Positions 18,151-35,074 of a stretch of DNA of 59,882 nt are shown here, in pieces. Location: assembly GCA_046154695.1 (NCBI GenBank), contig JBJXFI010000018.1, forward strand, positions 1 through 59,882. Direction: 5' to 3'. Positions within the stretch are counted from its first letter, which is position 1. Every line of letters begins with the position of its first letter. This DNA is from Blastocatellia bacterium (GTDB taxonomy: Bacteria; Acidobacteriota; Blastocatellia; RBC074). Both the position numbers and the translations under genes were made by a program. Below the pieces are notes generated by a model. That model was not told where the DNA came from and searched no databases. It saw nothing but the letters and a program-made list of their open reading frames with translations.

Positions 18151-19194
18151 CCATGGCACAGGAACGTAAATTTCAGGTGGGCATCAACTATCCATGGATC
18201 GATTATGCATGGGATTTCGGCGATCCGCCGTCGGCGTGGGTCGGGCCGGACTACGTCGCCGAATGGCGCGCGAAGAAGCGCAGCCGGATCCGCGAGGATT
18301 TTCGGGCCTTCGCCGACCTGGGCCTGTTCGCCGTTCGCTGGTTTCTGCTGGCCGACGGATTGAGTTACGGGACCGGCGCGGAAGGACCGCGCGTCGAGGC
18401 GGGGAAGTGGACCTTTCAGCCGCTTCCCCGCGATCATTCCTTTCACAAGCAGCTCCTCGACGATTTCGCGTTCGTCCTCCAGACCTGCGCCGAGCTGAAG
18501 ATCCAGTTCGTTCCCTCGCTGATCGATTTTCACTGGTGCCATCAGGGAGGCGCCGCCGATGCGAACGGCGAGGTCATCAAGGGCGGCCGCGCCGACCTCG
18601 TTCGCGACAGGGCGAAGCACGACGCGTTCTTCGACGCGGCGCTCGAACCGCTGCTCGACATCTCCATGCGCGCGCCCGAGGCAATCTATGCGTGGGAGCT
18701 GATCAACGAGCCGGAATGGGTGACCGAGACCGCCTCGCTGATGCAGATTCGCGGCGATCCGAACAAGACCGTCTCACAGGACGAGATGCTCGCCTTCATC
18801 GCCGAGGGCATCGGGCGGATCAATCACCGCCGCCTGCCGGATGGCCGCGCGGCATTCCGGTCCACCGTCGGATTCGCGCACTGGGACGCTGTAAAAGACT
18901 GGGACTCCCCCGGTCTCGGCGTCACGCTCCATCAATTCCACTATTACGCGCCCGACCGGCGCAAGATTCCCCGGCATAGCTTCGCGCCCGAATATCCCTG
19001 TTTCATCGGCGAATTCGCCACGAAATTCCATCGGGGATGGCCCGATTTGCGAAAGGGCGATCTCGCACGGACGATCTCGGCCCGGCTCAAATGCATCGAG
19101 GAGAAGGGGTATCCGTCAGCCTTTCTCTGGTCGGCCGGAGCCGTCGATGAGGCGACCATCTGGACCGGCGCCGATCAGGACGAGACGCTCGCGT

Positions 19195-20340
<1,146 letters not shown>

Positions 20341-20390
20341 TAGGTTGCTTCTCCCGTAACCGGCGTCCTCTCGCCGCGCCGCTCTCCCGC

Positions 20391-22643
20391 CTATCTCAAT
20401 AACGCATCGACCTTGGCCAGCAGCTCCTCGAAAACGATCCCGCGCTTGCTCAGGAAATCGTCGGCCCCCGACTGCAGCGCCTCGATCTTGTCCTCGAGCC
20501 CCTGGCGGCCGCCGAGCAGGATGACGGGCGTTTCGCGCTTCTCCTTGCGCAGGTCGCGGCAGATATCGAATCCAGATTGATGTTCGAGCAGCGCATCGAG
20601 GATCAGCAGTTGATAGTGGGCCGCGCGGGAGCGGGTTCGCTCCATCGCCTCCCTGCCGTCCTGCACCCGGTCGACCAGATAGTTCTCGACCTCCAGGCCC
20701 CGTTTCAGAATGGCCGCCAGCTCGTCATTGGCCACGGCGACCAGGATCCGTTCGATGGCCGGCAGCGAGGTCGTCGGCAGGCTGCCGGTGCGCCCCTTGT
20801 GCGCCATCGAGAGCCTCGCCGTGCCGGACGTCGGGGGGAGCATCGAGGTCATCGCCGCCGGCACATCCGCCAGCGTGGACGAGGCCAGCATCGCCTCGGC
20901 GCGCCGCAGATCGATCATCGCGCCGAGTTTGGCGAACTCGCGGGAGGCCTCCTCCAGATGCGCGCGCGCCGACTCGGGGCGGCTCTGGCGCAGGCGCAGC
21001 GACCCGATCGCTCCGTGGCAGACCGCCGTCCGATACGGGTCGCTGATGGTTTGAAAGATCGAAAGGCTTTGCCCAAAGGCGCGATTGGCCTCGCTCAATT
21101 CGCCGGCCTGGGTGTGGATCGTTCCCCGCGTGAAGAGCGCCCGCGCCATCAGGTTCAATGCCGGATCGAGAGAGGTCGCCGCCTCGGCGCCTTCCAGTTT
21201 CCCGCGGGCATTCGCCAGATCGGCGTTCTCCACGTGCGCAAGCGCAAGTTCGAACCCGAGCAGCACCTGCTCCTCGATCGCGCCCCGGTCGCGCGCGGCC
21301 GTCAACCCCTTCTCATACGCGTCGATCGCGGTCGATAGCTGGTGGCGCGCCTGGAGGATTCGCCCGAGGATTCGCTGCGTGCGCGCATAGATCACCGCGC
21401 CATGCCCCGCCACTGCCTGCTCGATCGATTGCCACGCGGCCGGCAGATCCCCCTGCAGCAGCTTCAATTCCGCCAGATCCGTCATCGCCACGGCTTCGGC
21501 CTTCGACAGCTTCTGTTCGCGGGCCAGCTTCAACCGATCCGCCAGCAGCCGCTCGGTCGCGGTCCAGGTTCCCAGGCGGGTCAGCACGCGGGAGAGGCTG
21601 CTGTAGCCCTTGAGCAGCAGCCGCACATTGCCGGTCTTCTCGATCATCTGGATGGCCGATTGATAAACGGGGATGGCCTCCTTCAGCCTGCCTTCGGTAT
21701 AAAGCACGAGCGCCTGCTGCAACTCGACCCGGCCCTTGAGCAGGTCGTCGCTCGTCTCCTCGGCCAACCGGGCGGCGCGGCCCCAATTGTAGCGGGCGCC
21801 CTCGAAGTCTCCTTCTTTCCACTCCACTTTTCCGAGCAGGTAATGGGACTCGGCGCGCAGGCGAACGTTGCCCGCCCGGCGCGCGGCGAGCATCGCCCGG
21901 TGCAGGTGGTCCCGCGCCGCCAGCAGGTCGCCGGCGCTGATCATCGCGCGGCCGAGCGCGGCGTGCGCGCCCGCGATTCCCGTGTCGTCGCTCTTGCCCT
22001 CGCCGGATTGCGAGAAGAAGCCCAGGCTGCGCTGCAGCGCGTCGATCGCGATCTCCATCTCCTTCCGCTCCAGATAGACGCGTCCGATGCAAAGCAGCAC
22101 GCCCGCGCGAAACGAGGGCGGAAGCGCGATCAACTGGGTCGTGTCGTTGTATTTCGAGAGCACATCCAGCGCCCGGTCAACCGCGCCCTTGTTCAAATGG
22201 GCCTCGGCCAGCACCCGGCGAAGATTGGCCTCTTCGCGGACATCCGCGTGCTGGATCTTCAATTGGCCGGTCAGGGAATGGATCAGGCCGTCGGCGCCGG
22301 CCGCCTCGTGGCGCGGCAGCAGCGGACCCGTCGCGCCTTCGGTCTCGATCAGTTGGAAGGTGATCTCCGGGCCGGCGCTGCCGAACCGGATGAGGTCGCC
22401 ATCGTTGAGCATCTGTTCCGAAATCCGGGCGCTGTTGATATAGCTTCCATTCGTCGATCCCAGATCGCGCAACATGAACCCGTTCCCCACACGGATCAGT
22501 TCGGCATGTGAACGCGACACCACCGTTTGGGGAATGCAGAGCGAATTTTCGGCGCCGCGTCCAATGGTGAATCGGGGGGATTCGAGCGGAAACGTTTGAG
22601 CTTCACCATTGAGGGTCAGATGAACTTCTCCACGCACACTCAT
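20391..22643 (-). CDS. FHA - TPR - receiver (REC) three-domain regulatory protein
   Basis: N-terminal FHA 'FTIGRGAENSLCIP..VSRSHAEL..LRDLGSTNGSYIN', central TPR-like helical repeats, C-terminal CheY-like domain 'ILVAVANDE..LLILDALL..PVILLGG..GADDFLSK'. Confidence 0.8.
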   Translation of the reverse strand: MSVRGEVHLTLNGEAQTFPLESPRFTIGRGAENSLCIPQTVVSRSHAELIRVGNGFMLRDLGSTNGSYINSARISEQMLNDGDLIRFGSAGPEITFQLIETEGATGPLLPRHEAAGADGLIHSLTGQLKIQHADVREEANLRRVLAEAHLNKGAVDRALDVLSKYNDTTQLIALPPSFRAGVLLCIGRVYLERKEMEIAIDALQRSLGFFSQSGEGKSDDTGIAGAHAALGRAMISAGDLLAARDHLHRAMLAARRAGNVRLRAESHYLLGKVEWKEGDFEGARYNWGRAARLAEETSDDLLKGRVELQQALVLYTEGRLKEAIPVYQSAIQMIEKTGNVRLLLKGYSSLSRVLTRLGTWTATERLLADRLKLAREQKLSKAEAVAMTDLAELKLLQGDLPAAWQSIEQAVAGHGAVIYARTQRILGRILQARHQLSTAIDAYEKGLTAARDRGAIEEQVLLGFELALAHVENADLANARGKLEGAEAATSLDPALNLMARALFTRGTIHTQAGELSEANRAFGQSLSIFQTISDPYRTAVCHGAIGSLRLRQSRPESARAHLEEASREFAKLGAMIDLRRAEAMLASSTLADVPAAMTSMLPPTSGTARLSMAHKGRTGSLPTTSLPAIERILVAVANDELAAILKRGLEVENYLVDRVQDGREAMERTRSRAAHYQLLILDALLEHQSGFDICRDLRKEKRETPVILLGGRQGLEDKIEALQSGADDFLSKRGIVFEELLAKVDALLR

Positions 22644-22752
22644 CGAATTGTCTCCTCTTGCCCATAAAACGCGGGGAGTATATCACCGGTCGCGCGCAAC
22701 GGGGAGGGAAGAAATCAAAAGTGCGAGGCGCTCCTCGGGATATTTTTCTTTC

Positions 22753-22780
22753 TTGACCCGAAAGGCCTTGCGGCTATAAT
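22753..22780 (+). promoter_or_regulatory. Near-consensus sigma-70 promoter (TTGACC - 16 nt - TATAAT) for the ATP-grasp cluster
   Basis: TTGACC at 22753-22758 and TATAAT at 22775-22780, about 75 nt upstream of the ATG at 22856 in the divergent intergenic region. Confidence 0.5.
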
Positions 22781-22855
22781 CGCCCCGCTGTTAATGAGTT
22801 CATCTCCACACCCCCGGAACCGACTCCGAATTAACGAACAGGACACGCAAGACGG

Positions 22856-23683
22856 ATGCCATCTTCACTTACAATAGGCGTGCTCGCGGAAGCGCGATAC
22901 CTGGTTCAGAACCAACCGACGGGTCTCTTTTCCGAGTTGCAATCGCAGGGACACGAGATCGTCCTGATCGATCCGCAGAGATCGTTTTACACGATGGGCT
23001 CGGACGCGTGGCTTGCGGGACTGGACGGAATCGTCGCGCGCGGCCGAAGCTGGGGGCTGCTCGGATTGCTCGGCTGGGCCGAGCGGGCCGGTATAAGGAC
23101 GATCAACCGCCGCGACGCGATCGCCGCCGTCCACAACAAGTCGCAGATGTCGATGGCGCTTGCGTCGAGCGGCCTGCCGATTCCCCAGACCTATTTCGGC
23201 AGCATCGCGCAGCTTGCGGCCAAGATTTCCCGCGATTGTTATCCAATCATTCTCAAACCGATCTTCGGCGATAATTCGCTCGGGCTGCTCGTCATCCCGA
23301 CGCCGGAGGAGATGGCCGCGACCGAGTGGACGGAGCCCGTGGCGCTGGCGCAGCGCTATTTCCGGACCGATGGATACGACCTAAAACTCTATGGCATCGG
23401 CGATGAGGTCTGGGTCGTGCGCAAGGTCTCGCCCTTCAACGCCGCCGAGGGGATGGACCGGTCGCGGGAGGGGCTCGTCGAGGCGACGCCGGAGCTGCGG
23501 GACCTCGGGCGCCGCTGCGGGCGGCTCTTCGGGCTGGACCTGTACGGCGTCGATTGCATCGAGACGGCCGACGGCGTCCTGATCATCGAGATCAACGACT
23601 ATCCCAACTACACCAACGTGCCGGCGGCAAACGCGCTGCTGGCGGAGTATGTCGTTGGCCGCTGCCGGAGCGATGCCTCGTGA
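22856..23683 (+). CDS. ATP-grasp enzyme, divergent paralogue 1 (RimK/ITPK-like)
   Basis: 'YPIILKPIFGDNSLGLLVI', 'DLKLYGIGDEVWVVRK', 'LYGVDCIETADGVLIIEINDYPNYTNVP'. Its N-terminal half is more RimK-like than in paralogues 2-4. Confidence 0.75.
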   Translation: MPSSLTIGVLAEARYLVQNQPTGLFSELQSQGHEIVLIDPQRSFYTMGSDAWLAGLDGIVARGRSWGLLGLLGWAERAGIRTINRRDAIAAVHNKSQMSMALASSGLPIPQTYFGSIAQLAAKISRDCYPIILKPIFGDNSLGLLVIPTPEEMAATEWTEPVALAQRYFRTDGYDLKLYGIGDEVWVVRKVSPFNAAEGMDRSREGLVEATPELRDLGRRCGRLFGLDLYGVDCIETADGVLIIEINDYPNYTNVPAANALLAEYVVGRCRSDAS

Positions 23684-23687
23684 GCCT

Positions 23688-24491
23688 ATGAAGATCGGGA
23701 TCATCACAAAACGGGAGAAGGCCACAAAATCGGGGTCGGTCATGCAGGAGGCGGCCGGAATTCTGCAATCGCGGGGCTGCGAGTGCGGGATGATCTATCC
23801 CGAGGACGGACGCATCGAGATCGCGGCGGTCCGAGCGGACTGCGATCTCTATCTGCTCAAATCCGGCACGGAGGCCGCGCTCTCGCTGGCGGGCGTGCTC
23901 GATTCGATGGGGGCGCGCATACTCAATCCGTATCCCACCGTCATCGCCATGCGCGACAAGGTCGTCTCGACGCGCAAACTGCTCTCGGCGGAGGTTCCGC
24001 TGCCCGAGACCTGGTTCGCCGCGAAGCCGGGCGACCTGGCCGATCTGCTTGCGGATGGTCCGATCGTCGTCAAGCCTTTCTGGGCGGCCTCGCAGGGGCG
24101 CGGTGTGCGAGTGATCCGCGAGGCGCGGGAACTCGCGTCCCTCGATCCGGTCGAAGATCTGCTCTTCGCGCAGCGATACAATCCGCCCGACGGCCGCGAC
24201 CACAAGCTCTATGTCATCGGGGAGCAGGTCTTCGGCGTCCGCCGCGTCTGGCCGCCAAAAACGCTCGAGGACAAGCTCGGCGAACCCTTCGAGGTTCCCG
24301 GCGAGATGCGGGAGATCGCGCTCCGCTGCGGCCGCGCCTTCGGCGTCGGCCTTTACGGCGTGGATCTGATCACCAGCGGCGGACGCTCCTACATCGTCGA
24401 TCTCAACACCTTTCCCGGATTCAAGGGCGTCCCCGATGCCGCATCGTTGTTGGCCGATTTCATTTTGAAAACATCCATTGAAAACATCTGA
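23688..24491 (+). CDS. ATP-grasp enzyme, ITPK1-like (inositol polyphosphate kinase family) paralogue 2
   Basis: 'CDLYLLKSGTE', 'ILNPYPTVIAMRDKVVS', 'HKLYVIGEQVFGVRR', 'LYGVDLITSGGRSYIVDLNTFPGFKGVP'. ATG lies 4 nt after the preceding stop. Confidence 0.7.
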   Translation: MKIGIITKREKATKSGSVMQEAAGILQSRGCECGMIYPEDGRIEIAAVRADCDLYLLKSGTEAALSLAGVLDSMGARILNPYPTVIAMRDKVVSTRKLLSAEVPLPETWFAAKPGDLADLLADGPIVVKPFWAASQGRGVRVIREARELASLDPVEDLLFAQRYNPPDGRDHKLYVIGEQVFGVRRVWPPKTLEDKLGEPFEVPGEMREIALRCGRAFGVGLYGVDLITSGGRSYIVDLNTFPGFKGVPDAASLLADFILKTSIENI

Positions 24492-24500
24492 GGTGAATGA

Positions 24501-25343
24501 ATGAAACTTCATTTTATGGTTGTCCGCCGGGTGCCGCCGGTTCCCAGCCCGGTGCTGGTCGAGTGCTACGAGATTTTGCGCGGACGCGGATACACGGTCA
24601 CCGAGGACATCGCCGAGGAGATTCTGCAGCGCCCCGATCTGCTGACGATCGACGCCGACCTCTATCTGCTCAAGTCTCACACGGAGCTCTCGCTCGCGAT
24701 GGCCGGCGTGCTGCACACGCAGGGCGCGAACATGCTCAACCCCTATGAGTCCTGTTCGCTGATTCAGAGCAAGATCATCACATCGAAGCTGCTGCGGGAG
24801 GCCGGGATTCCCGCGCCCGATTCGTGGGTGACCAATGATCTGAGCATGGCCAAATCGCTGCTCGAAAAACATCCGCTGATCATCAAGCCGCACATGGGGC
24901 ATCGCGGCGCGGGCGTCAGTCTTTGCCGGACGCCGGAGGAGATCGACCGGATCCCCGCGCCCGTCACCCCGATGATCATCCAGGAAGCGATTCCCGGGCC
25001 GGGCGAGGACCTCAAGATCTATTGCGTCGGCGATCAGGTGCAGGGCGTGCGGAAGCAGTTCTCCGAGTCCAGTTTCTCGGTCGCCGGCCGCCACGGCGAG
25101 ATCACCGAGGAGGTGCGCCGCATCTCGCAGCGCGTCGGCGAAGTGTGCGGCCTCGGTTTGTACGGCCTCGACATCATCGAAAGCGATCGCGGGCCCTATG
25201 TCGTCGATGTCAACTATTTTCCCGGCTACAAGGGCGTGCCGAACGCCGCCGGGCTGATCGCCGACTATATCGATCAGTACGCCAAAGGCCGCGTGACGCT
25301 GACGCCGCCGGTTCCCGGGGCCGCGCGCGTGGCCGCGAGCTGA
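24501..25343 (+). CDS. ATP-grasp enzyme, ITPK1-like paralogue 3
   Basis: '[11 protein letters not shown]', '[18 protein letters not shown]', '[15 protein letters not shown]', '[28 protein letters not shown]'. Confidence 0.7.
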
Positions 25344-25351
25344 ATGCCACG

Positions 25352-26572
25352 ATGAGCCAATCCCAGGAAGAAGCGGTGCGGGAGTCGAAGGCTTCCAGAA
25401 ACGCGGTGCTGGTTCTGCTGCTGGAAGGCTTTCTCTCCCGGCTGAGCTTCTCGGTTCTCGGGTTCGCGCTTCCGCTCTTTGCATACCGCCGGTTGGGGTT
25501 GAGTCTGACCCAGACGGGGTTTCTCTTCTCGGTCAACCTGATGTCGGAGCAGCTCTTCAAGCCGCTGATGGGCTGGGTGGCGGATCGCGCGGGGGTGAAG
25601 CGGATCTTCACGGCGTCGATTGCGCTGCGCAGCCTGGTGGCATTGCTGCTGGTCTTCGCCGGCGCGCCCTGGCAGGTGTACGCGATCCGGTTTTTGCATG
25701 GATTCGCGGAATCGCTGCGCGATCCCTCGGTTGCGGTGCTGATCGCGGTGAATGCGCGGGAGACGCGGCTCGCCTCGACCTTCGGCTGGTACACGACGGC
25801 GAAGCAGTCGGCCGGCTCGATCGGCGCCGCCCTGTGCGGGCTGTTGCTGGCCGCGACCGGGGACCGCTATGACGTGGCCTTTGCCGCGGGCTTTGTTCTT
25901 TCGCTTGCCCCCCTGTTCGCGGTCGCGCGATACCTGGAGGAACCGGCCCGCCATTCGGGCCCCGCCCCGGGGCCGCCCGCTTCCGCGGCGCCTTCAGGAG
26001 AGGCGGGGAAAAAAGAGAAGAGCGGGCTTTTGCCGATCGTCATCTTCGGGTTTTTGAGCGCGTGCACCGCGCGGATGATCACCCAGTTCTTTCCCATCCT
26101 GGCGATTGAATATGGCGGATTGAGCACGGCGCAGACGAGCCTGATCTATGCCGTCTCGCTCGTCATTCTGATCGGGGCCGGACCCCTCTTCGGCTGGCTG
26201 TCGGACAATGTCAGCCGGAAAATGGTTCTGATGGTTCGGGGCATCGCCAGTACGATCTCGTCGGCGTGCTTCTATTTCTTTCCCACGCTGCCCGGATTGG
26301 CCGCGGGGAACGTTCTCGATTCCCTGGGCAAGGCCGCCTTCCGGCCCGCCTGGGGCGCGATGATGGCCCGCGTCGCCCGGCTGAACCCGCGGCGACGGGC
26401 GCGAACGATGAGTTATTTGAGTCTCGGCGAGGGGCTCGGAGAGACCCTCGGGCCGATTCTGGGCGGGTTTCTGTGGAGCACCTGGGGCATCGGCGCCATG
26501 CTCGGCGCCCGCGTCGCCCTGGCGCTGCTCGGAGAGGTGTACGCCGTGATTGTGGCGCGAACCGATCAATAG
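25352..26572 (+). CDS. MFS transporter (12-TM type)
   Basis: ATG at 25352, 8 nt after paralogue 3. '[52 protein letters not shown]'. Paralogous to the C-terminal domain of the 29255-32410 protein. Confidence 0.85.
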
Positions 26573-26573
26573 C

Positions 26574-26731
26574 GGCACAAGCTGTCCAGCTTGTGCCGGG
26601 TGTAAGGGTGCGCGTGAAGAGTAGGGCGGGTCGCGCGCCGGAAGTCGTCTCGTTCGAGGCCTGGTTTTTTTCTGAGAGTGTCTGGCGGAGGCGGCACAAG
26701 CTGGACGGCTTGTGCCACTTTTTCTGAGGAG
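26574..26731 (+). repeat. Copy B (complete) of the ~150-nt structured intergenic element
   Basis: GGCACAAGCTGTCCAGCTTGTGCC (26574-26597), GC stem GGTGCGCG..CGCGCGCC, CTCGTTCGAG mini-hairpin, second hairpin GGCACAAGCTGGACGGCTTGTGCC, then ACTTTTTCTGAGGAG 6 nt before the ATG at 26738. Confidence 0.85.
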
Positions 26732-26737
26732 AATGAA

Positions 26738-27583
26738 ATGCGAATCTGTTTTTTGATGGAGCCGCCGCGAAGCAACACGTCGGTGACCTATGAAGTGTTG
26801 AGCGGATTGCAGGCGAGCGGGGCGGAGGTGGAGGTGGTCACCGAGCGAAGCGGGCTGATCGACCTGCAGAATTTCAGGTTCGATTACGATGTGTATCTTT
26901 TCAAGTCGCATTCGCCGCTGGCCGAGAGCCTGGCGGCCGCGGCCCATTTTCGCGACGCGCGGCTGCTGAACGAGTATCCGGCGACGATGAAGGTTCGGGA
27001 CAAGGTGCTGACCTGCACGATGCTGCTCCAGGCGGGCATTCCCACGCCGCGCACCTTCGTCACCGATGCGATCGAGACGCTGCGCCCGGCCGTGCGCGAG
27101 ATGCCGATCGTCGTCAAGCCCTATCGCGGCCGCCGCGGCATGGGAATCGAGGTCTGCATGGATGAGGCCCAGTTCGACGCGCTGGTCCGGCGCCGCGAGG
27201 GAGCCGCCGTGGCCGATCTCGACGAGGGGGGCGAGGACGGCACGGCCCTCGGCGATCGCCTGATCTTCGCGCAGGAGTACGAAGAACACGAACCCTACGA
27301 TTACAAGGCCTATGCCATCGGCGATTACGTCCACGCCATCAAACGCATCTTCCCGGCGAAAACCAAGGAAGAGAAACTCGGCGTTCCGGTCGGCGAGGAC
27401 CCGGAACTCGAAGATCTGGTCCGGCGCTGTGGAAAACTTTTCGGGCTGCAGCTCTATGGCGTCGATCTCGTGAAAACGCCAAAAGGCTATTCGGTGATCG
27501 AGGTCAACTGCTTTCCGGGATACAAGGGCGTTCCCGAGGGCGGCGCCCGCATTTCAAACTTTATCCTCGAACATGTCCGGTGA
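26738..27583 (+). CDS. ATP-grasp enzyme, ITPK1-like paralogue 4
   Basis: '[11 protein letters not shown]', '[17 protein letters not shown]', '[18 protein letters not shown]', '[15 protein letters not shown]', '[28 protein letters not shown]'. Confidence 0.7.
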
Positions 27584-27747
27584 CAGGCAACAGATGGTTC
27601 GGCGAGCTTCATCGAAGGAGCCGTTTTATTGACACCCCTTGCTCGGATTGCCCTGGATCAGACGATTAACACTCAAGGGGCCTGATGAGAAAGCTGTATA
27701 AATTGGCTGTTGAGCAGGCTGGAGATTATTTTGGAGGAACATAGACT

Positions 27748-29106
27748 ATGGCTTCGGGATTGAAATCTTGGACACCCCTGGCGATTCTGCTTATCGCGGG
27801 GGTTATTTCATTGGCGCTTATTTCGGAATCGGCTTCGGCCCATTTCACCTTCCTGGACGCGTTTTCGTCCGAAAAGGAGAAGAAAGACAAGAAAGAGAAG
27901 AAGTCGAAGAGCAAAGTCGACGACGATGATGACGACGATGACGATCAGGACAAGGAGCAAAAGAAGCGGGAGAAAGAGGAGAAGAAGCGGGCCGAGAAGG
28001 CCGCGAAGTCGAAGATGAAGTCCGAGCCGGAGGCGGCCTCGGGGGTGGCGATCGCGTCAACTGAAAGGGCGGGCGAGAAGGCGGAAAAGACGGCAGCGAA
28101 GAAGGCCGAAGCCCGGGCATTGGCGGGTCCGTCGGCGGCCGCGATTGCGGAGCCGTTGGAAGCGGTCTTCGCGGTGGTGGAGACCGATCCCGTTCCGCAC
28201 GGCGGGGACGCCGCCGATGATCCCGCCATCTGGATTCATCCGAAAGATCCGTCCCAGAGCACCATCATCGGCAGCGACAAGCAGGGCGGCCTCGCCGTCT
28301 ATGACCTGAGCGGCAAACAGATTCAGTATCTCTCCGACGGATTGATGGACAACGTGGACCTCCGGGACGGCTTCACGCTCGGGGGCGAAAAGGTCGCAAT
28401 CGTCACGGCGAGCAATCGGAAAGACAACTCCATCGCGATCTACAAGGTCAACGCCGCGACGCGAAAGCTCGAACCCGCCGCGGCCCGCGTGGTCAAGCAC
28501 GGCATGACGGTTTACGGCATGTGTATGTATCGGAGCGGGAAATCCGGGAAATTCTTTTATTTCGGAACCAGCAAATCGGGCGATGTCGAACAGTACGAGC
28601 TCTTCGACAATGGCGGCAAGGTGGATGTGAGGAAGGTCCGCAGCTTCAAGCTCGGATCGGTCGTCGAGGGCTGCGTCGCAGATGATGAACTGGGCCATTT
28701 CTACATCAGCGAGGAGGCGGTGGGAATCTGGAAATACGGCGCGGATCCGGATGCGGGCGCGGAGCGCGTCCAGGTCGACAAGGTCGGCGGCCATTTGAAG
28801 GCCGATGTCGAAGGACTGGCGATCGCGTACGGTCCCGACGGGAAGGGATATCTGATGGCCTCCAGCCAGGGGGACTATTCGTTTGTCGTCTACCGGCGGG
28901 AAGGCAATAACGAGTTTGTCCGGAAGTTCCGGATCGGCGACGGCGCGGGGGTCGATGGCGCGGAAGAGACCGACGGAATCGATGTGACGACGGCCAGCCT
29001 GGGGCCCGCGTTCCCGAATGGCCTCTTCGTCGTGCAGGACGGGTTCAACGACAAGGGCAACCAGAACTTCAAACTCGTTCCCCTGCAGGCGATCGTCAGG
29101 CCGTAA
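27748..29106 (+). CDS. Secreted beta-propeller phytase (3-phytase, BPP family) with K/E/D-rich N-terminal extension
   Basis: Signal/TM '[18 protein letters not shown]'. '[83 protein letters not shown]' fits the Bacillus PhyC-type phytase pattern. GGAGGAAC SD. Confidence 0.8.
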
Positions 29107-29122
29107 CCCGCGGCAGCGAACA

Positions 29123-29219
29123 GGGAGGAGACACGGAATAGACGGAAAGAGCGGAATCAACGGGCCCGAAATCGCGGGCTGCCGGTTGTTCCGTTAATTC
29201 CGTCTATTCGTTTTCTCCC
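29123..29219. repeat. ACGGAA-type imperfect palindromic element, copy I
   Basis: GGGAGGAGACACGGAATAGACGGAAAGAGCGGAATCAACGG .. CCGGTTGTTCCGTTAATTCCGTCTATTCGTTTTCTCCC. The arms are reverse complements with a few mismatches. Confidence 0.8.
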
Positions 29220-29254
29220 ATCTCATTGAGAGACAATTTCGGAGGACGTCACGC

Positions 29255-32200
29255 GTGAAACGATGCCCGGTTTGCAATCGTGAAATGCCCGATACCAAGA
29301 AGTTCTGTGATCGGGATGGGGCGGCGCTCGTTGCGATCGAGCCGGCGCTGCTGCCGCGGCTGATCATCCGGGCGCCGGAGGGCGGGGAGCGGGACATGGC
29401 GATCATCTCCGCGATCTCGACCATCGGGAAGACGCCGGACAACGGCATCGTCGTCACGGATGGCGCGATCAGCCGGAAGCATGCGCAGATCGAGCAGCGG
29501 GATGGACAGTATCTCCTCAAGGATCTGGGAAGCCTGAACGGGACGTTTTTGAATGGGCAGCGGCTCGATTCGCGGGAGCAGCCGCTGAAGGACGGCGATG
29601 AGATCGTGATCGGGCGGACGCGCATGCTGTTTCGGCTGCTGCCCGATATGTCGCAATTCGCGACGGTCGAAAACGACCCGCAGCGGGGACAGGAGCCTCC
29701 GCCTCGATTGACGAGCGTCATTGAGACGCCGCGGCCGCCGGTTCCCGCGCCGGCGCCTCCGGCGAAGCCCGCGGCGCCTCCTCTACAGCCGCCTCCGCAA
29801 TTGGCGCCGAAAGCGCCGCCTCCGCCTCCGCAATTGACGCCGAAACCCGTGCCTCCGGCGCCGCCGCGGATCACGAATCCGGCGATTCCGGAGGGGAAAC
29901 GTCCGGAATATAAGGTGGCGCTGACCGGCGAACTGGTCGTGCCCTCGTCCGCGGCGACCCTGACGGGAGACTCCGGGCCGATCATTCTCGACGGCCGGTA
30001 TGAACTCGAAAAACGAATCCTGCAGGATGCGACCGGGACGCTCTATCGCGCGCGACGAGTGTTGCTGAATGACCGCGTCTCGATTCGGGTGCTGCGGCCG
30101 GAGCTGGTGGGCGAGGAGACCGCGGTCGAGCGGTTTCGCCGCCAGGCGCAGGTCGCCGCGCTGATCCGGCATCCCAATTCCGTGCAGGTCTACGACTTCG
30201 GCTATTCGCCCGAGGGGGCGGCCTATATCGTCGAGGAACTGATCTCGGGCAGGACGCTGCGGGATCTGATTCGCAAAGAGCGGGGGCTGAGCCTTGCGCA
30301 CGTCGTCGGCCTGTTCAATCAACTCTGCGGCGCGGTGCACGCAGCCCATCTGAGCGGGATCATGCTCCGCGATCTGCGGCCGGAGATGATCTATGTCGAG
30401 ACCGACCCGAGCGGCGGCGAACTGATCAAGGTCGGGGGATATGCGCTGGCCAAGATGGAGGGAGCGGGCGCGAGGGAAAAGTCGCTGACCGGTCCCATCG
30501 GCGTGTATGGCCTGCCGCAATACGCCTCTCCCGAACAATTGTTCAATCGGCCGCTGGACGCGCGATCCGATATCTATTCGCTGGGCGTGATCCTGTATGA
30601 GCTGCTCACCGGGACTGTCCCGTTCGACTCCGAGAACGAGAACGAGCTGCTGACGATGCACATGTATTCGTCCGTTCCCGATCTCACCGAGATTGGGCGG
30701 AGCGACCTGGATGAAGGCGTTGCGGCCGTCGTCAACCGGGCGCTGGATCCGTCCCCCAACAGGCGCCAGGCCTCCGCGCTGCAGCTCGCGGAAGAGCTGC
30801 AGGCCGTCTCCGGCGTGGGCGGCAACCCGCTCAGTCAGATGGTCTCGAAAGTCACGGGGCTGCTCTCTTTCCCGCATCTGGTGATCCCGCCGAAGATCCA
30901 GCCTTCGGCGGGGGAACAGGCGCTGCCGTCGGTTCTGCCCGAGGTCCGGGAACAGGGGAAGGGCGCATTCAATCCGGTGGTGATGGCGCTGATGGCCGAG
31001 GCCTTTCTGTCGCGCCTCTCAAGCGGAATGATCAAAACGGCCGTTCCGCTCTATGCGCTGCTGGTCTTCGGAATGAAGATCACTTCGGTCATGGCGCTGG
31101 TGCTGGTTCAGAACATCGTTCCGCTGCTGCTGCGGCCGGTCTTCGGATCGCTGGCCGACAAGCACGGCAAGAAACGGGTCTTTATGGTCTCGCTCACCAT
31201 CCGGACGCTGGTGGGCGTGCTCTATGCGGTCGCTTCGCTGCCGATGCTCTATTTCGTCAGTCTCGTTCGCGGAATCGCGGACTCGGCCAAGGGGCCGTCG
31301 GCCTCCGCAATGATCGCCGACAACACCGATGAGAAGAGCATCGCGCAGGCCTATTCCTGGTACACGACGACCAAATCGACCTCCGGCGGCATCGGCGAGG
31401 CGCTTGCGGCCTTCGTTCTGACGGTGCTGATCGCGGTCTATGCGGGCACGCAGACGGTCAACGTCAATTTCGCGGTCACCGACAAGGTCACGCGCTCCGG
31501 CGCGGGCGCGGAGGAGATCGTCAAGGATCCCGCGCGGATTCGCGTGGGACAGCCGCTCCCCGGCGCCGAGAGCGATCCGGCCGCGCCCAGGGTGGTGCGC
31601 GTCGAGCAGCGCGCGATGCGCCTCGGCGATGTCCCGATCGAGGACCTGCCGAAGGTCGTCGATTCGCCCCCGCTGCGAAAGGCCCTGGTCGCCATCTTTC
31701 TCATCGCCACCGTCTTTTCGCTCGGCTCGCTGATTCTCGTCGCGGTCTTCATCAAGGAAAAGAAGAAAGAGAAGAAAGAGAAGAAGGAGAAGGGCGCGCT
31801 CACCGGGCGGCTCGATGCGCCGCTGGAACAACCGAATATCTGGCTCTTCGCCCTGCTCGGGACCGCGCTGACCGCGCCGGCCTATATGGTCACCGGGGAG
31901 TTCTTCACGATTCTCGCCGTCAAACTCGAGGTCACGCCCTCCTCTCTCGGATGGATCAAGATTCTCGCCGAGACGGCCGTGCCCCTGCTCTTCGGGCCCT
32001 TCTTCGGATGGCTCGCCGATCGCATCGGCGCCGGCCGGGTGATCGCGCTGCGATCCATCGCCAATATGCTCACCTCGGCCCTCTTCTGGATCGTTCCCTG
32101 GTTTGCCGGAACCGCGCTGCTGGGCCTGATGATGGGCGTCGCCCGCGCGATCGACGAAGTCGGCAAGGCCGCTTTCAAGCCGACATGGGGCGCCATCGCC

Positions 32201-32410
32201 GCCAAGGTCTCCAGTTTCAATCTTTCGGCCCGCAGCCGGACCATGGGCATTCTCGAAGGCGGCGTCGACGCCTCCGACCTCGTCTTCCCCGTCGTCGCCG
32301 GCATGCTTTTACAGTATCTGTCGCTCGGGCCGCTGATGCTCGTCCGCGCGATGCTCGCCGTCGCGGCCGAGATTTACGGCTTCCTGCTTATGCGCAAATA
32401 TAAAATCTGA
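29255..32410 (+). CDS. Fusion protein: zinc ribbon - FHA - degenerate Ser/Thr protein kinase-like domain - MFS transporter
   Basis: '[19 protein letters not shown]'. FHA '[30 protein letters not shown]'. Pro-rich linker. Hanks-type fold '[72 protein letters not shown]'. From about aa 570 an MFS domain paralogous to 25352-26572. Confidence 0.85.
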
Positions 32411-32523
32411 AATTCGTCCGACGCGCGTATAAAAAATCCTCGCGGGCTTTGACCTATTGCCCCGTCCGATTTACAACATACGGCAAGAAACGATCGATTC
32501 AATTCCACACCCGGAGACTGTCT

Positions 32524-33192
32524 ATGAAGAACAAGATATTTCCTGCTGTCGTCTGTATGCTTTTTCTTGGAATTTCGGGCCAGGCGCAGACGCCCGGCCC
32601 TCCGGCGGATAAGGAAGGGTTTGTCTCCCTCTTCGACGGGAAGAGCCTTGCCGGATGGAAGCTCGTCAGCGGGCGGGGCCCCGGCTATATCGTGAAATAC
32701 GGCGAGATCATCTGTCCGGTCGAGGGAGGCGGAAATCTTTACACGGAGAACGAGTACGCCAATTTCGCGTTCCGGTTCGAGTTCAAGTTCGAGCCCGGCG
32801 GGAACAACGGCATCGGCATTCGCGCGCCGCTCGACGGCGATGCCGCATATCAGGGCATGGAGATTCAGATTCTCGATGACCAGCACGAAAAGTATAAGGG
32901 GAAGATCAAATCGGAGCAGCATCACGGCTCGGTTTATGATGTCGTTCCGGCCCGGACCGGCTATCTGAAGCCCGCGGGTGAATGGAATGTGGAGGAGATC
33001 CGCGCCGAAGGGAGCCGCATCCGCGTGACGCTCAACGACGTGATCATCCTCGACACGGATCTCAATCTCGTGCGCGAGGCCGAGGTGCTCAGGAAACATC
33101 CGGGGCTGCGGCGGAAGAGCGGCCACATCGGCTTTCTCGGGCACGGCTCGCTGGTCCAGTTTCGCAACCTTCGCATCAAGACGCTGCCGTAA
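32524..33192 (+). CDS. Secreted DUF1080 (3-keto-disaccharide hydrolase-like) protein
   Basis: Signal '[18 protein letters not shown]'. '[71 protein letters not shown]'. Confidence 0.8.
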
Positions 33193-33237
33193 GGTTGTTC
33201 GGAGTTCCGCCTTCAGGCCAATGGCATTAAGTTTAGA

Positions 33238-33485
33238 GGGTGTATTGAAGTTCTTTTGCCTCAACCCGCAAAGCGGGTGGCAGCATATAGCCTGGGGTGA
33301 AGGCGAAGCCAGAACCCCAGGGTTGGTAAAAACCGTTGTCAAGCCCGTGAAACGGGCGACAGCGAACGCTCTGCCGCCCGTTTCACGGGCTTGCGAGCGT
33401 TTTCGATGCGGTCCTGGGGCTTACGCCCCAGGCTATATGCTGTCGCCTGCTTCGCAGGCTGCAAAAATCGAATTTCAAAACACCC
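33238..33485. repeat. ~250-bp compound imperfect palindrome made of nested small hairpins (MITE-like or structured RNA)
   Basis: Symmetry centre near 33365. AAGCCCGTGAAACGGGCG (33341-33358) pairs with 33375-33392 (18/18). CAGCATATAGCCTGGGG (33281-33297) pairs with 33426-33442 (17/17). Outer GGGTGT..TTGAA pairs with TTCAA..ACACCC. Confidence 0.8.
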
Positions 33486-33486
33486 A

Positions 33487-33840
33487 CTACGGGATGCTCC
33501 ACAAGATATACGCGGCCAGCACGGCGCCGGCGATCGCGCTGCCGTAACAGATCACGGCGATCAGCTCGTTCAGATGCTTGATCTGCAGCCCATCGTACAG
33601 CGTAAAACGAAACCGGTGCGCGCCGTGAAAAAGCGGCACCGAACACAACACGAACAACACGAGCCGCATCAACGGCTGCCGCGCCAGCCCCAGCATGCTC
33701 TCATAGCTCGGCGCCTCGACCCAGCCGAGCGGAATCGCCAGGCCGAACAGGAAGAGCAGCGCTGGAAATACCAGCGCCGCGATCATTCCGCCGGAACTGA
33801 AGAGCGACCACAGAAACGGCTCATTCGATCGTTTGCCCAT
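33487..33840 (-). CDS. frdD: Fumarate reductase membrane anchor subunit D
   Basis: 'KRSNEPFLWSLFSSGGMIAALVFPALLFLFGLAIPLG..HGAHRFRFTLYDL' parallels E. coli FrdD. 117 aa counted from 'MGKRSNEP'. Confidence 0.8.
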   Translation of the reverse strand: MGKRSNEPFLWSLFSSGGMIAALVFPALLFLFGLAIPLGWVEAPSYESMLGLARQPLMRLVLFVLCSVPLFHGAHRFRFTLYDGLQIKHLNELIAVICYGSAIAGAVLAAYILWSIP

Positions 33841-33841
33841 C

Positions 33842-34276
33842 TCAATTCCCTCTCGTAAAAAGCCACCAGATGACCGCCGAGACCGCCAGCCACAGCGCAT
33901 AGTTCGGCGCGGAGATCATCCAGTCCGGCAGCCGCTTTCCGCCCACCCGCACCGGCATCGCCTTCGGCGCCAGGTTGAACCACGTGATCGAGTGATAGAG
34001 CACAAAGAGAAACGCGATGAGGCTCATCACGAGAAACGACGGCGTCCTCCACCACGCCAGAAATGCGGCGTAGCTTTCCGGCCCCCGGGACAGGCTCCAG
34101 ATCATCCAGAGCAGCAGCACGCCGACATAGCCGACCGCGATGCTGCTCAGTTCCCGCAGGATGAATTTGAAGGACCGCCATTGCTCCATCCACCACCAGG
34201 TGGAGACCCGTTTGCGATACCACTTGGGACGATAGAGGTTATAGGCCGGCGATTCTTTCATCTCGGAATCCTCCAT
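33842..34276 (-). CDS. frdC: Fumarate reductase membrane anchor subunit C
   Basis: 'YRPKWYRKRVSTWWW..FILRELSSIAVGY..GPESYAAFLAWW..LYHSITWFNLAPKA' parallels E. coli FrdC. Confidence 0.8.
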   Translation of the reverse strand: MEDSEMKESPAYNLYRPKWYRKRVSTWWWMEQWRSFKFILRELSSIAVGYVGVLLLWMIWSLSRGPESYAAFLAWWRTPSFLVMSLIAFLFVLYHSITWFNLAPKAMPVRVGGKRLPDWMISAPNYALWLAVSAVIWWLFTRGN

Positions 34277-34324
34277 GCTCCAATTGCCATTTCAGAGCTG
34301 AATGCGGCCATTCCGGCGCGCTTC

Positions 34325-35068
34325 TCATTTCTTGCCCCACGGCATGAGCACCGATTTGTACCAATCGGTCACCGCCTTGATCTTGTACTGCTGGATGGCC
34401 CCCGCAGGATCGACGTTCTTCGGGCAGGCTTTCGTGCATTCTCCGTTGAAGGTGCAGCCCCAGATGCCGTCGTGCTGGGAAAGGATGTCGAGGCGCTCCT
34501 CGGCCCCCTGATCGCGGGAGTCCTCGTTATAGCGCTGCGCCAGCGCGATGGCCGCCGGCCCGATGAAATGCGGATCCAGCCCGACGACCGGGCACGCGGC
34601 GTAACAGCACAGGCAGTTGATGCACATGCTGAACTGTTTGTAGTTGTCCATCTCCCGGGGCGTTTGCAGGTATTCGCCTTCCGAGATCGGCTTCTCTTCC
34701 TGGCGGACGATCCACGGGTTGACGCTCTTCAGCTTGTTGATGAAATCGGTGATCTCCACGACCAGGTCGCGAACGATCGGAAAGTAGCGCAGCGGCTCGA
34801 TGCGAATCGGCCCCGGCGCATAGTGTGTCAGGAAGGTGGCGCAGGTGAGCTTCGGCTCCCCGTTGACCATCATCCCGCAGCTCCCGCAGACGCCCATCCG
34901 GCAGCTCCACCGAAACGAAAGCGATCCGTCCAGCCTGTCCTTGACGTAATTGAGCGCGTCGAGCACCACCCAGTCTTTATTGAGGGGCACCTCGAACCGC
35001 TCGAACGCGGGCTCCGCTTCCTGCTCGGGCCGGTAACGCGCGACCTCGAGAGTGATCGTTTCAGCCAT
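34325..35068 (-). CDS. frdB: Fumarate reductase iron-sulfur subunit
   Basis: Cys clusters '[15 protein letters not shown]' (2Fe-2S), '[12 protein letters not shown]' and '[12 protein letters not shown]'. Confidence 0.9.
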
Positions 35069-35074
35069 CTATCC

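Follow-up and report, generated by a model that had tools for sequence, protein, structure and literature searches.

The closest described relatives of the ATP-grasp enzymes considered here are the ligases RimK, LysX and ArgX and the kinase ITPK1, which phosphorylates InsP1 upwards and of which Lokiarchaeum has four homologues, two pairs flanking inositol-phosphate synthase genes (PMC6900528). Further parallels are the mtlA-mtlD mannitol operon, the bifunctional mannitol-1-phosphate dehydrogenase/phosphatase of Acinetobacter, the secreted beta-propeller phytases of Bacillus (PhyC/TS-Phy; 1POO, 1H6L), and PPIP5K/Vip1, in which an ATP-grasp and a phosphomonoesterase domain are joined in one protein. 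In mycobacteria, the pseudokinase domain of the membrane transporter MviN (MurJ) reportedly works with FhaA. Here we describe an operon from a Blastocatellia bacterium, located in a stretch of 59,882 nt (contig JBJXFI010000018.1, the window hereafter). A sequence-only reading of this DNA knew of no bacterial system of such composition, and our literature searches likewise gave no published description; the operon is real, undescribed and present in several bacterial phyla.

Re-reading of the sequence combined with profile searches gave the same gene set, gene order and promoter for positions 20391–33192 as the sequence-only reading. A sigma-70-like promoter (22753–22780, + strand, TTGACC-16 nt-TATAAT) fits at 11/12 positions and was the sole promoter-like match in the 14.4 kb scanned (19000–33400). 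It precedes, on the same strand, the ATP-grasp genes gA (22856–23683, 275 aa; RimK 2.4e-7, Ins134_P3_kin 6.7e-7), gB (23688–24491, 267 aa; RimK 2.6e-11, Ins134_P3_kin 8.6e-9) and gC (24501–25343, 280 aa; RimK 2.1e-16, Ins134_P3_kin 3.8e-11) and an MFS transporter gene (25352–26572, 406 aa; MFS_1 3e-41), with gaps of 4, 9 and 8 nt. The start of gB was set at 23688 although the longest ORF opens at 23649; its orthologues begin with MKIG. Downstream lie a fourth ATP-grasp gene, gD (26738–27583, 281 aa; ATPgrasp_ST 4e-12, RimK 3.9e-11, Ins134_P3_kin 5.3e-9), and the genes for a secreted beta-propeller phytase (27748–29106), a Zn-ribbon/FHA-pseudokinase-MFS fusion (29255–32410, 1051 aa; FHA 8e-20, Pkinase 3e-26, MFS_1 5e-27) and a secreted DUF1080 (3-keto-disaccharide hydrolase-like) protein (about 32449–33192, with a start at 32449 or 32524; PF06439 1.9e-43), all on the + strand. 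Divergent from the operon is the gene of an FHA-TPR-REC regulator (20391–22643, − strand; FHA 1e-17, TPR_12 2e-24, Response_reg 2e-17), and downstream of it on the same strand is an MtlD-like (mannitol-1-phosphate-5-dehydrogenase-like) oxidoreductase gene (19195–20340, − strand; PF01232 and PF08125), a conserved gene that was cut off by the left edge of 20391 originally drawn for the island.

The spacer between the MFS gene and gD is 165 nt long and contains the palindrome GGCACAAGCTG-N4-GCTTGTGCC twice (26572–26597 and 26691–26716, + strand; fold z = −5.7 over 26572–26716), of which the second, together with its T-run, resembles a terminator. As the palindrome recurs elsewhere in the window, at 18112 and 45596, it is a dispersed REP-like element, and it was not found in the 84 related loci described below; the structured repeat proposed earlier consists of these two copies, and the 158 nt given then are corrected to the 165 nt of the spacer. 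The palindromic element proposed 3′ of the phytase gene takes the form of a long imperfect hairpin in the phytase/fusion-gene interval (29127–29218, + strand; 37-nt arms, 76% complementary, MFE −66.9 kcal/mol, fold z = −5.4), which is probably a terminator or RNA-stability element.

A core of three paralogous ATP-grasp enzymes, the MFS transporter and the MtlD-like gene was conserved in at least six phyla, with the order gA-gB-(MtlD-like)-gC-MFS seen in Acidobacteriota, Chloroflexota, Actinomycetota, Gemmatimonadota, Gamma- and Betaproteobacteria and Eisenbacteria MAGs, and since it recurs in dozens of genomes, this arrangement is far beyond chance. The carriers found were without exception MAGs or metagenome contigs, and represent soil and wastewater bacteria of several phyla. 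Each of gA, gB and gC is 45–60% identical across phyla (54–59% for gC, whose relatives form 172 representative clusters at E≤1e-30) and about 30% identical to the other two, the order is fixed, and start/stop codon overlaps of 4 nt are frequent between core genes of related loci. In the set of 84 related loci, those of the Acidobacteriota type contained gA and gB in 45/45, gD in 36/37, the phytase in 31/37 and the FHA-pseudokinase-MFS fusion in 31/33 cases, with the MFS gene 3′ of gC in 49/49 of these and in 15/16 other loci, and the FHA-TPR-REC gene in 34/40 loci with enough upstream sequence. Neither gD nor the FHA-TPR-REC gene was present in the 11 loci from other phyla, and the phytase, gD and the fusion were all missing from the Chloroflexota, Actinomycetota, Gemmatimonadota and gammaproteobacterial versions (phytase in 1/11 non-Acidobacteriota loci); the function of the core is therefore independent of phytate. 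A betaproteobacterial MAG locus (L083) has a phytase gene after the core, 3′ of the MFS gene. The MtlD-like gene was found in 56/84 loci, and outside the Acidobacteria it sits between gB and gC. Judged by this distribution, gD, the phytase, the fusion and the FHA-TPR-REC regulator are Acidobacterial additions to the core. Co-conservation of the gene set, in support of the first reading, holds for the Acidobacteriota-type loci; the DUF1080 protein, once counted as an island member, has no homologue in the 84 loci, and its gene adjoins the system but probably does not belong to it.

The ATP-grasps had been read as ITPK1-like, but all four were nearer to RimK/LysX by Pfam, NCBIfam, PDB phmmer and hmmsearch, Foldseek, HMM and hhalign comparisons. 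The hhalign E-values were 1e-13 to 1e-20 against RimK versus 5e-5 to 3e-13 against ITPK1, the gA family HMM scored 80 bits on EcRimK and 47 bits on HsITPK1, and the AF2 model of gC (pLDDT 89) reached TM-scores of 0.76–0.77 with ArgX, LysX and RimK and 0.67–0.70 with ITPK1. In PDB profile searches ITPK1 (E about 1e-15) ranked straight after RimK/LysX/ArgX (down to 6e-25) as second-nearest solved family, while the similarity to PPIP5K2 was marginal (E=2e-3). The proteins share size and domain order with RimK, LysX and ArgX, but remain below all curated family cut-offs (65–90 bits for NCBIfam rimK_fam and LysX, versus 143–276), give no match to Rimk_N, GSH-S_ATP or Dala_Dala_lig_C, all of which are matched by genuine RimK, and lack the [ST]-N-x-x-R-G-G loop that RimK and LysX have in common as [FW]x[ST]NxxRGG; nor does the island contain an S6 or LysW-type substrate gene. 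Conversely, all four exceed the gathering cut-off of 23 bits for Ins134_P3_kin (PF05770; 29–43 bits), which a genuine RimK control did not match, and share with ITPK1 the ATP-grasp fold and the C-terminal motif D-x-N-x-F-P-G-Y-[KE]-G-V. The PF05770 match is restricted to the last 55–70 of 201 profile positions, however, the N-terminal domain of ITPK1 (PF17927) is missing, and the proteins are shorter (265–280 aa), without the ITPK1 insertion after R212. Using the published ITPK1 residue list (PMC6900528), the equivalent of K199 was Lys and that of R212 Lys or Arg in all four, a feature which does not discriminate since these positions are basic in RimK as well. Basic residues abound in the Gly-rich loops, the gA consensus VRKpSPfN aligns with VQRPSLKN of ITPK1, and one relative has the exact ITPK1 motif VQRPSL. 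HMM cross-scores placed gD closest to gB, making it a gB-like paralogue.

The MtlD-like protein aligned over its full length with the MtlD structure 3H2Z (E=6e-55) and has kept the GxGxxG and K-x4-N-x2-H motifs, but with 241 bits falls under the 368-bit cut-off of the NCBIfam MtlD equivalog, and differs from the mtlA-mtlD system in having no PTS and in always accompanying three ATP-grasps and an MFS transporter. It is fused to gC in three proteins (P0121, P0122 and P0164). An inositol-monophosphatase-family (IMPase) domain (PF00459, 5e-52) is joined to a gB-type ATP-grasp in P0161/P0272, on six contigs, within an MtlD-grasp-gA-grasp-gB::IMPase-MFS operon, a variant in which the added phosphatase domain recalls the Acinetobacter enzyme; PPIP5K/Vip1 pairs comparable domains, but with a histidine acid phosphatase instead of an IMPase-family domain. 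A distant member of the ATP-grasp family adjoins a ROK sugar kinase. The dehydrogenase::ATP-grasp and ATP-grasp::IMPase fusions suggest that the substrate is the phosphate of a sugar or polyol, and the partner kept across phyla is this MtlD-like enzyme rather than an inositol enzyme, contrary to the inositol-phosphate system initially envisaged. No inositol-specific genes (MIPS, iol) were seen in the window or the related loci; the lack of an inositol-phosphate synthase, already claimed from the sequence, was borne out among the scanned window ORFs of ≥300 aa, a part of all ORFs.

The phytase has an N-terminal signal peptide followed by a K/E/D-rich linker of about 100 residues (approximately residues 40–135) that sets it apart from the Bacillus enzymes, as does its position in an ATP-grasp/MFS operon, and its whole catalytic propeller (residues 140–449) aligns with that of 1POO (E=4e-87). 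Together with the match to PF02333 (7.6e-106), this confirmed it as a secreted close relative of the characterised Bacillus beta-propeller phytases. Phytase-like propellers (PF13449 NHL-type, DUF3616) are also found nearby, and replace or join the phytase in some relatives.

The nearest solved structures for the MFS transporter were QacA and NorA (E about 1e-5), and it resembles DHA3/EntS-like exporter models, with MFS_3 matches in relatives. The polyol-permease model TIGR00897 matched weakly over its full length (E=8e-12), whereas the GlpT/UhpT/PgtP organophosphate family scored only 65 bits against a 407-bit cut-off and gave no PDB match. These distant similarities to drug- and siderophore-type exporters speak weakly against import of inositol phosphates by the MFS proteins, as had been suggested. 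The E-x-F-x-S-R motif of TM1 is invariant, and several Lys/Arg residues are kept in transmembrane segments. The MFS part of the fusion is a paralogue of the stand-alone transporter (35–36% identity over both halves), for which the fusion stands in at four loci (L045, L046, L049 and L052), and the architecture occurs in at least 120 database clusters. In the window and 40 orthologues the VAIK Lys is replaced by Arg and DFG by GYG/GYA, hence the kinase domain is a pseudokinase, as first read. Like MviN with FhaA, the fusion links a membrane transporter to a cytoplasmic pseudokinase and an FHA partner, and its transport would be controlled by Ser/Thr phosphorylation; its transporter is, however, of the MFS and not the MOP flippase type, the FHA domain forms part of the one polypeptide and a cell-wall context is absent. 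In diderm lineages, DUF5916 or alginate-export-type outer-membrane proteins are found beside the core.

We tentatively favour a pathway in which a hexitol phosphate derived from fructose-6-phosphate is phosphorylated stepwise and then transported. The MtlD-like enzyme, given its full-length homology and conserved catalytic motif, would convert fructose-6-phosphate into a hexitol phosphate, for example mannitol-1-phosphate, or back, and gA, gB and gC (plus gD in Acidobacteria) would each perform one ATP-dependent modification of this polyol phosphate. These steps are most likely O-phosphorylations of the ITPK1 kind, with a polyphosphorylated hexitol as outcome; a kinase rather than a ligase is suggested by the missing RimK/LysX loop, the PF05770 scores, the rank of ITPK1 in the PDB, the basic K199/R212 equivalents and Gly-rich loops, and the VQRPSL relative. 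The MFS transporter may move the anionic product or a precursor over the membrane, with export weakly favoured as direction, and some diderms may add the adjacent outer-membrane barrel. The secreted Ca-dependent phytase could cleave not only phytate but also vicinal polyphosphate esters of this kind, the second transporter copy with its FHA and pseudokinase domains may gate transport through Ser/Thr-phosphorylation signalling, and the FHA-TPR-REC protein would be a third Acidobacterial addition, acting as regulator. The embedding of the phytase in 31/37 Acidobacteriota-type loci and one betaproteobacterial MAG, the invariant Arg/Lys residues of the MFS transporter and the neighbouring outer-membrane proteins argue for this reading, and the Lokiarchaeum loci, with ITPK1 paralogues clustered with an enzyme making a polyol monophosphate from hexose phosphate, provide a precedent together with the phosphorylation of InsP1 by ITPK1 (PMC6900528). 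They differ in that the partner here is MtlD-like (acyclic hexitol phosphate) and not MIPS, and that this system comes from bacteria and includes a secreted phytase besides a transporter. Against the kinase assignment stand the overall proximity of the ATP-grasps to ligases and the C-terminal-only PF05770 match, and export of a phosphorus-rich compound via a DHA-like MFS followed by hydrolysis outside the cell would be costly and without precedent. The IMPase fusion would fit just as well as the last step, a dephosphorylation, towards a non-phosphorylated product. Literature searches for a polyphosphorylated hexitol in bacteria found nothing, and to our knowledge none is known.

RimK, LysX and ArgX being the top match in every comparison, the ATP-grasps may instead be carboxylate-activating ligases, which would place three to four acyl or amino-acyl groups in ester or amide linkage on the MtlD-made hexitol phosphate for export by the MFS. 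In some lineages a phosphatase would strip off the phosphate handle, and the product might be a polycarboxylate chelator or osmolyte. The majority of ATP-grasp families are ligases, an ATP-grasp occurs alongside an MFS exporter in vibrioferrin clusters, the MFS here is exporter-like, and gB::IMPase just before the MFS gene fits the logic of compatible-solute pathways, where a phosphorylated precursor is built upon and then dephosphorylated. We nevertheless consider ligation somewhat less likely than phosphorylation, as the RimK/LysX loop, the ligase domain matches and scores near the rimK_fam/LysX cut-offs are lacking in all four families, a gene to provide a special acid or amine is missing, the 4–9-nt gaps hold no carrier protein or precursor peptide, and ATP-grasp enzymes rarely esterify polyols. 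Modification of a protein by RimK-like addition of glutamates, with unrelated neighbours, draws on the same top match and is very improbable: the RimK N-terminal domain and catalytic loop are missing, the cluster has no Glu-tailed target gene, and the MtlD-like and IMPase fusions and translational coupling tie the ATP-grasps to small-molecule metabolism.

Scavenging of inositol phosphates, as originally proposed, had the phytase trimming phytate, the MFS proteins importing lower InsPs, and ITPK1-like kinases re-phosphorylating them or harvesting their phosphate under FHA control. The bona fide phytase inside most Acidobacteriota-type operons and once in a betaproteobacterial MAG, the additional propellers close by, the ITPK1 signal above threshold and the IMPase fusion are all consistent with it, but we regard it as unlikely, since 10/11 loci of other phyla carry the core without phytase, the conserved and fused MtlD-like partner is left unexplained, MIPS and iol genes were not seen in the window or the loci, and the MFS has no specific organophosphate-transporter affinity. 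Phosphate transfer from isolated, uncrowded InsP3 monoesters to ADP is moreover thermodynamically unfavourable, which speaks against the harvest. Less probable still is a PTS-independent equivalent of mtlA-mtlD, in which a hexitol imported by the MFS is phosphorylated by the ATP-grasps as hexitol kinases and then oxidised by the MtlD-like enzyme, giving fructose-6-phosphate. Although this is the simplest pathway employing all three kinds of component, and is in line with the MtlD-like enzyme and the polyol-permease match, three paralogues in fixed order with about 30% mutual identity indicate three steps rather than one kinase, the IMPase fusion would create a futile cycle, and alginate-export/DUF5916 channels and secreted phytases are unexpected for uptake of a neutral polyol.

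Most likely, then, the operon builds and transports a multiply modified sugar alcohol, which is probably phosphorylated, as in the hexitol phosphate pathway that we favour. If the modifications were instead made by ligases, an Acidobacterial chelator could help to release phytate from minerals and so make it available to the phytase encoded alongside.

An ORF listing with Pfam and NCBIfam scans of the window recovered all genes named in the sequence-only reading, which had proposed an island for the uptake, remodelling and signalling of inositol polyphosphates at 20391–33192. An FHA-TPR-REC regulator is encoded on the minus strand (20391–22643), and a σ70-like promoter (22753–22780, 11/12 match) on the plus strand precedes the genes for the ATP-grasp paralogues gA (22856–23683), gB (23688–24491) and gC (24501–25343), a stand-alone MFS transporter (25352–26572), a fourth ATP-grasp paralogue, gD (26738–27583), a secreted beta-propeller phytase (27748–29106) and an FHA-kinase-like-MFS fusion (29255–32410). 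The gaps of 4, 9 and 8 nt originally given were correct, and contained no plausible small ORF for a LysW-like carrier or a RiPP precursor. The plus-strand gene for a DUF1080 protein 3′ of the fusion gene had been counted with the island, and was ruled out as a member of the system, as 0/84 related loci contained a homologue. Just 3′ of the DUF1080 gene lies an Acido-Lenti-1 sRNA motif (Rfam RF01687, 33413–33460, plus strand; 40.8 bits, gathering score 37; E=2e-6), which fits with the window being of Acidobacterial origin. Elsewhere on the contig, an ISAZ013-type DDE transposase gene (10763–11986, minus strand; PF07592, E=8e-145) coincides with a local low-GC stretch (0.56 vs ~0.63), and a 1031-aa ORF without a Pfam match (33833–36928, plus strand) is probably a GC-rich shadow ORF, which overlaps a minus-strand succinate dehydrogenase/fumarate reductase flavoprotein gene (35075–36820; PF00890, 1.6e-109).

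With a gC alignment as the query, 80 loci were retrieved from the GTDB species representatives and mapped by tblastn, and this survey bore out the co-conservation of the gene set, with most members recurring in Acidobacteriota-type loci. When only those loci with enough flanking sequence were counted, the MFS gene was present in 49/49, gA and gB in 45/45, gD in 36/37, the phytase in 31/37, the FHA-pseudokinase-MFS fusion in 31/33 and the FHA-TPR-REC regulator in 34/40. Elsewhere, in Chloroflexota, Actinomycetota, Gemmatimonadota, Gamma- and Betaproteobacteria and Eisenbacteria MAGs, only gA-gB-gC-MFS was kept (15/16 and 11/12). Operon identity was 45–60% across six or more phyla, and all carriers found were MAGs or metagenome contigs. 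The left boundary originally drawn for the island left out an adjoining core member that the sequence-only reading had missed, a mannitol-1-phosphate-dehydrogenase-like (MtlD-like) gene located downstream of the FHA-TPR-REC regulator (19195–20340, minus strand). This gene was detected in 56/84 loci, those without one being mostly short contigs, and outside Acidobacteriota its usual place is between gB and gC; in locus L062 the genes there overlap by 4 nt.

The genes around this core varied between lineages. The sole phytase gene 3′ of the MFS gene outside Acidobacteria was found in the betaproteobacterial locus L083, where it is followed by an alginate-export-type porin, while DUF5916 outer-membrane proteins adjoin the MFS in L042, L070, L077 and L091, and many Acidobacterial loci also contain DUF3616 or an NHL-type 'phytase-like' propeller (PF13449). 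The regulators also differ: Anaerolineae have a serine/threonine kinase (STK) and an FHA-wHTH protein, Actinomycetota a small FHA protein, and other variants sigma-54 activators. Two Chloroflexota loci (L065, 946–6576; L075, 13062–18762) have the operon flanked by a shared ECF-type sigma factor, an unknown protein, a TPR-CHAT protein and an S8 peptidase. In some Blastocatellia loci gB and gC are separated by additional genes, which were set aside as an inserted DUF433/DUF5615 toxin-antitoxin-like pair rather than pathway genes; this pair is on the opposite strand and splits the tight operon (L009, 5578–6310, minus strand), with similar gaps in L006, L011, L016 and L022. Many apparently conserved small families from ORF clustering were discarded as opposite-strand shadow ORFs of GC-rich genes. 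Several MAGs labelled as Heliomicrobium, Heliobacteriaceae or Clostridia (L008, L010, L012, L021, L045 and others) carried clusters 64–92% identical to those of Blastocatellia, and these labels look wrong.

The ATP-grasp paralogues had been labelled as ITPK1-like, and gA–gD do score above the gathering threshold for PF05770 (Ins134_P3_kin; 29.5–43.3 bits vs 23), but RimK, LysX and ArgX were nearer in every comparison. The PF05770 match was limited to profile positions ~130–200 of 201 and arose in all four proteins from a C-terminal D-x-N-x-FPGYKGV region, compared with positions 1–200 and 298 bits for a human ITPK1 control, and no PF05770 match at all for a genuine RimK control. Pfam RimK was the best or near-best match of gA–gD, spanning nearly the whole ATP-grasp domain. 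Pfam searches detected neither the N-terminal pre-ATP-grasp domain PF17927 (4e-36 in the ITPK1 control), nor Rimk_N (1.6e-40 in the RimK control), GSH-S_ATP or Ddl domains in gA–gD, and LysX_preATP_grasp was absent from the window proteins, with faint matches in some relatives only. Full-length NCBIfam matches to rimK_fam (65–90 bits) and LysX (65–78 bits) remained well below the curated cut-offs (143 bits for TIGR00768, 276 for LysX and 350 for MptN). In phmmer and profile hmmsearch comparisons with the PDB, RimK, LysX and ArgX ranked first (E as low as 6e-25), directly followed by ITPK1 (~1e-15), with PsnB, cyanophycin synthetase and Ddl further down the ranking. The same order, with RimK nearer, emerged when family HMMs and hhalign were applied to human ITPK1 and E. 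coli RimK, using reference sequences identical to PDB chains 2ODT and 5ZCT, respectively. An AF2 model of gC (pLDDT 89) gave TM-scores of 0.76–0.77 to ArgX, LysX and RimK and 0.67–0.70 to ITPK1, and this predicted structure could not separate a ligase from a kinase.

Individual motifs set the family apart from typical RimK-type ligases. The [FW]-x-[ST]-N-x-x-R-G-G loop that follows the second ATP-binding strand in E. coli RimK, Pseudomonas RimK and Thermus LysX is missing from the conservation profiles of the gA–gD families, and the operon gaps hold no gene for an S6, LysW or precursor-peptide substrate. Protein glutamylation, as a function of these RimK-related enzymes, is unlikely. The inositol-phosphate contacts of ITPK1 are H167, K199 and R212 (proximal) and K18, K59, H162 and G301 (distal) (PMC6900528). 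The K199 position is Lys in gA–gD and Arg in RimK, those of R212 (in all four) and K59 are Lys or Arg, Arg takes the H167 position in gB and in most gA, and gB, gC and gD retain G301; since RimK, too, is basic at most of these positions, the contact residues do not discriminate and were dropped as a criterion. ITPK1-like V-[RQ]-[KR]-P-S loops are present in gA and in a distant relative, the latter having exactly VQRPSL. The description that suits the gA–gD family best is that of a distinct clade lying between RimK/LysX and ITPK1. One weak family member (P0236) was located within a glycosyltransferase/APH/ABC cluster of no relation to the operon and was left out.

The alignment of the MtlD-like protein to MtlD (3H2Z, E=6e-55) is full-length, and the two Mannitol_dh domains are present together with the GxGxxG motif for NAD binding and the catalytic K-x4-N-x2-H. 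Its best NCBIfam equivalog score was 241 bits and did not reach the cut-off of 368, which makes it a diverged paralogue, possibly with another substrate. Searching 1.84 billion representative proteins with a profile yielded 172 clusters at E≤1e-30, among them natural fusions of the MtlD-like protein with gC (P0121, on two contigs; partial forms P0122 and P0164), and of a gB-type ATP-grasp with an inositol-monophosphatase-family (IMPase) domain (PF00459, 5e-52; P0161/P0272, on six contigs). The operon of the latter has the order MtlD-like, ATP-grasp, gA, degenerate ATP-grasp, gB::IMPase and MFS. Its degenerate paralogue (L088/L089, 9207–10004) matches the family HMMs in the N-terminal half only and has no Pfam match, which suggests a non-catalytic subunit. 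A distant ATP-grasp family member adjoins a ROK sugar kinase. Together, the fusions and gene overlaps tie the ATP-grasp proteins to a sugar- or hexitol-phosphate substrate, which is predicted to have hydroxyls and phosphate, and no carboxylate or amine.

The description of the phytase as a secreted beta-propeller enzyme proved sound: PF02333 matched at E=7.6e-106 (positions 23–353 of 375), the entire propeller matched Bacillus phytase structures (1POO, E=4e-87), and the translated N-terminal hydrophobic segment ends in SASA, as for a secretion signal. Beta-propeller phytases are specialised for Ca-chelated vicinal phosphate esters. Low-complexity segments rich in K, E and D are found in the phytase (residues ~40–135, and a nine-Asp run in the linker) and in the central MFS loop of the fusion, with Ca binding or surface tethering as possibilities. 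The stand-alone MFS reached 65 bits vs a cut-off of 407 for TIGR00881 (OPA), in its N-terminal half only, and its PDB matches did not include GlpT or UhpT, the best being QacA and NorA; its nearest solved relatives are exporters, at a weak E of ~1e-5. It has invariant Arg/Lys in its transmembrane segments and an acidic residue in TM1. The stand-alone and fused MFS are paralogous (35–36% identity), and the fused version takes the place of the stand-alone one in L045, L046, L049 and L052. The fusion does contain a pseudokinase, as proposed, in the window and in 40 orthologues, but is absent from the core of the other phyla. In all of these the VAIK Lys is replaced by Arg and DFG has become GYG, and in the orthologues the HRD His is replaced by Leu and the Asn is variable, in contrast to a genuine neighbouring STK from L062, which retains the VAIK Lys, HRD...N and the DFG Asp. 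Fusions of this architecture are frequent in Blastocatellia, with at least 120 database clusters that bear no annotation beyond 'MFS transporter' or 'kinase'. We take the MviN pseudokinase of mycobacteria, with FhaA, to be its closest known analogue, and this analogy suggests that the fusion may be a phosphorylation-gated transporter.

A structured repeat of 158 nt had also been described between the MFS gene and gD. The spacer, which in fact measures 165 nt, does carry a palindromic element, but this is dispersed and not specific to the cluster. A perfect 24-nt palindrome, GGCACAAGCTG-N4-GCTTGTGCC, of which none are expected by chance, occurs in four intergenic copies in the window (18112–18135, 26574–26597, 26693–26716 and 45596–45619), two of these in the spacer, and was absent from all 84 related loci. 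The copies at 18112 and 45596 and the absence from related loci indicate a REP-like dispersed element, apparently specific to the genome of the window, rather than a cluster regulator. A cluster-specific riboswitch or attenuator in the spacer was rejected on the same grounds, and no Rfam family matched inside the cluster. Taken together with its T-run, the second spacer copy resembles a terminator, and a long stable hairpin is located 3′ of the phytase gene.

ITPK1 phosphorylates InsP1, and Lokiarchaeum has four ITPK1 homologues placed on either side of inositol-phosphate synthase genes (PMC6900528), a layout paralleled by the operon of the window. The reading that we favour, if only tentatively, is that fructose-6-P would be reduced to a hexitol phosphate, which the ATP-grasp paralogues would phosphorylate one after another, as ITPK1 does with InsP1, with the anionic product carried by the MFS and the Acidobacterial phytase serving as a recycling or companion enzyme. 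Its main rival, possible although rather doubtful, has the ATP-grasp proteins as ligases on the same scaffold that yield an exported acylated polyol, and the gB::IMPase fusion fits such ligase logic equally well. Simple hexitol catabolism around the MtlD-like enzyme is unlikely. The scavenging of inositol phosphates, put forward as the function in the sequence-only reading, accounts for the phytase, but leaves unexplained both the MtlD-like core gene and the phytase-free versions in other phyla, and we consider it quite improbable.

In its most extended form, to which we give only a small chance, stepwise phosphorylation would have several phyla make an acyclic phytate analogue: a set of three or four ATP-grasp kinases related to ITPK1 would act on a hexitol phosphate derived from fructose-6-phosphate, and the product would be moved out of the cytoplasm by a dedicated MFS (some lineages adding an outer-membrane channel) and re-mobilised by the Acidobacterial Ca-dependent phytase, with the fusion gated by phosphorylation. 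If this is true, the product would be a private phosphorus or cation store or a metal-binding agent, and polyphosphorylated polyol metabolism, so far taken to be eukaryotic and Asgard-archaeal, would be widespread in soil and wastewater bacteria. We found no published description of the gene set in the literature on bacterial ITPK1, ATP-grasp with mannitol-1-phosphate, polyol polyphosphates, or phytase with RimK. The operon components belong to known superfamilies, and we see only a small chance that the operon is a bacterial polyphosphorylated-polyol pathway, a finding that would be categorically new.

Highly phosphorylated polyols, of which the inositol phosphates are an example, count as a hallmark of eukaryotes and, lately, also of Asgard archaea. 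If the ATP-grasp proteins are kinases, bacteria would make and handle related molecules on a different scaffold, and such molecules would be linked to phytases, which drive the turnover of organic phosphorus in soil and wastewater. Should the ATP-grasp proteins prove to be ligases, the operon would define a widespread exported metabolite in abundant and mostly uncultured bacteria such as Blastocatellia and Anaerolineae. The uncharacterised FHA-pseudokinase-transporter fusion also offers a model for phosphorylation-gated transport.
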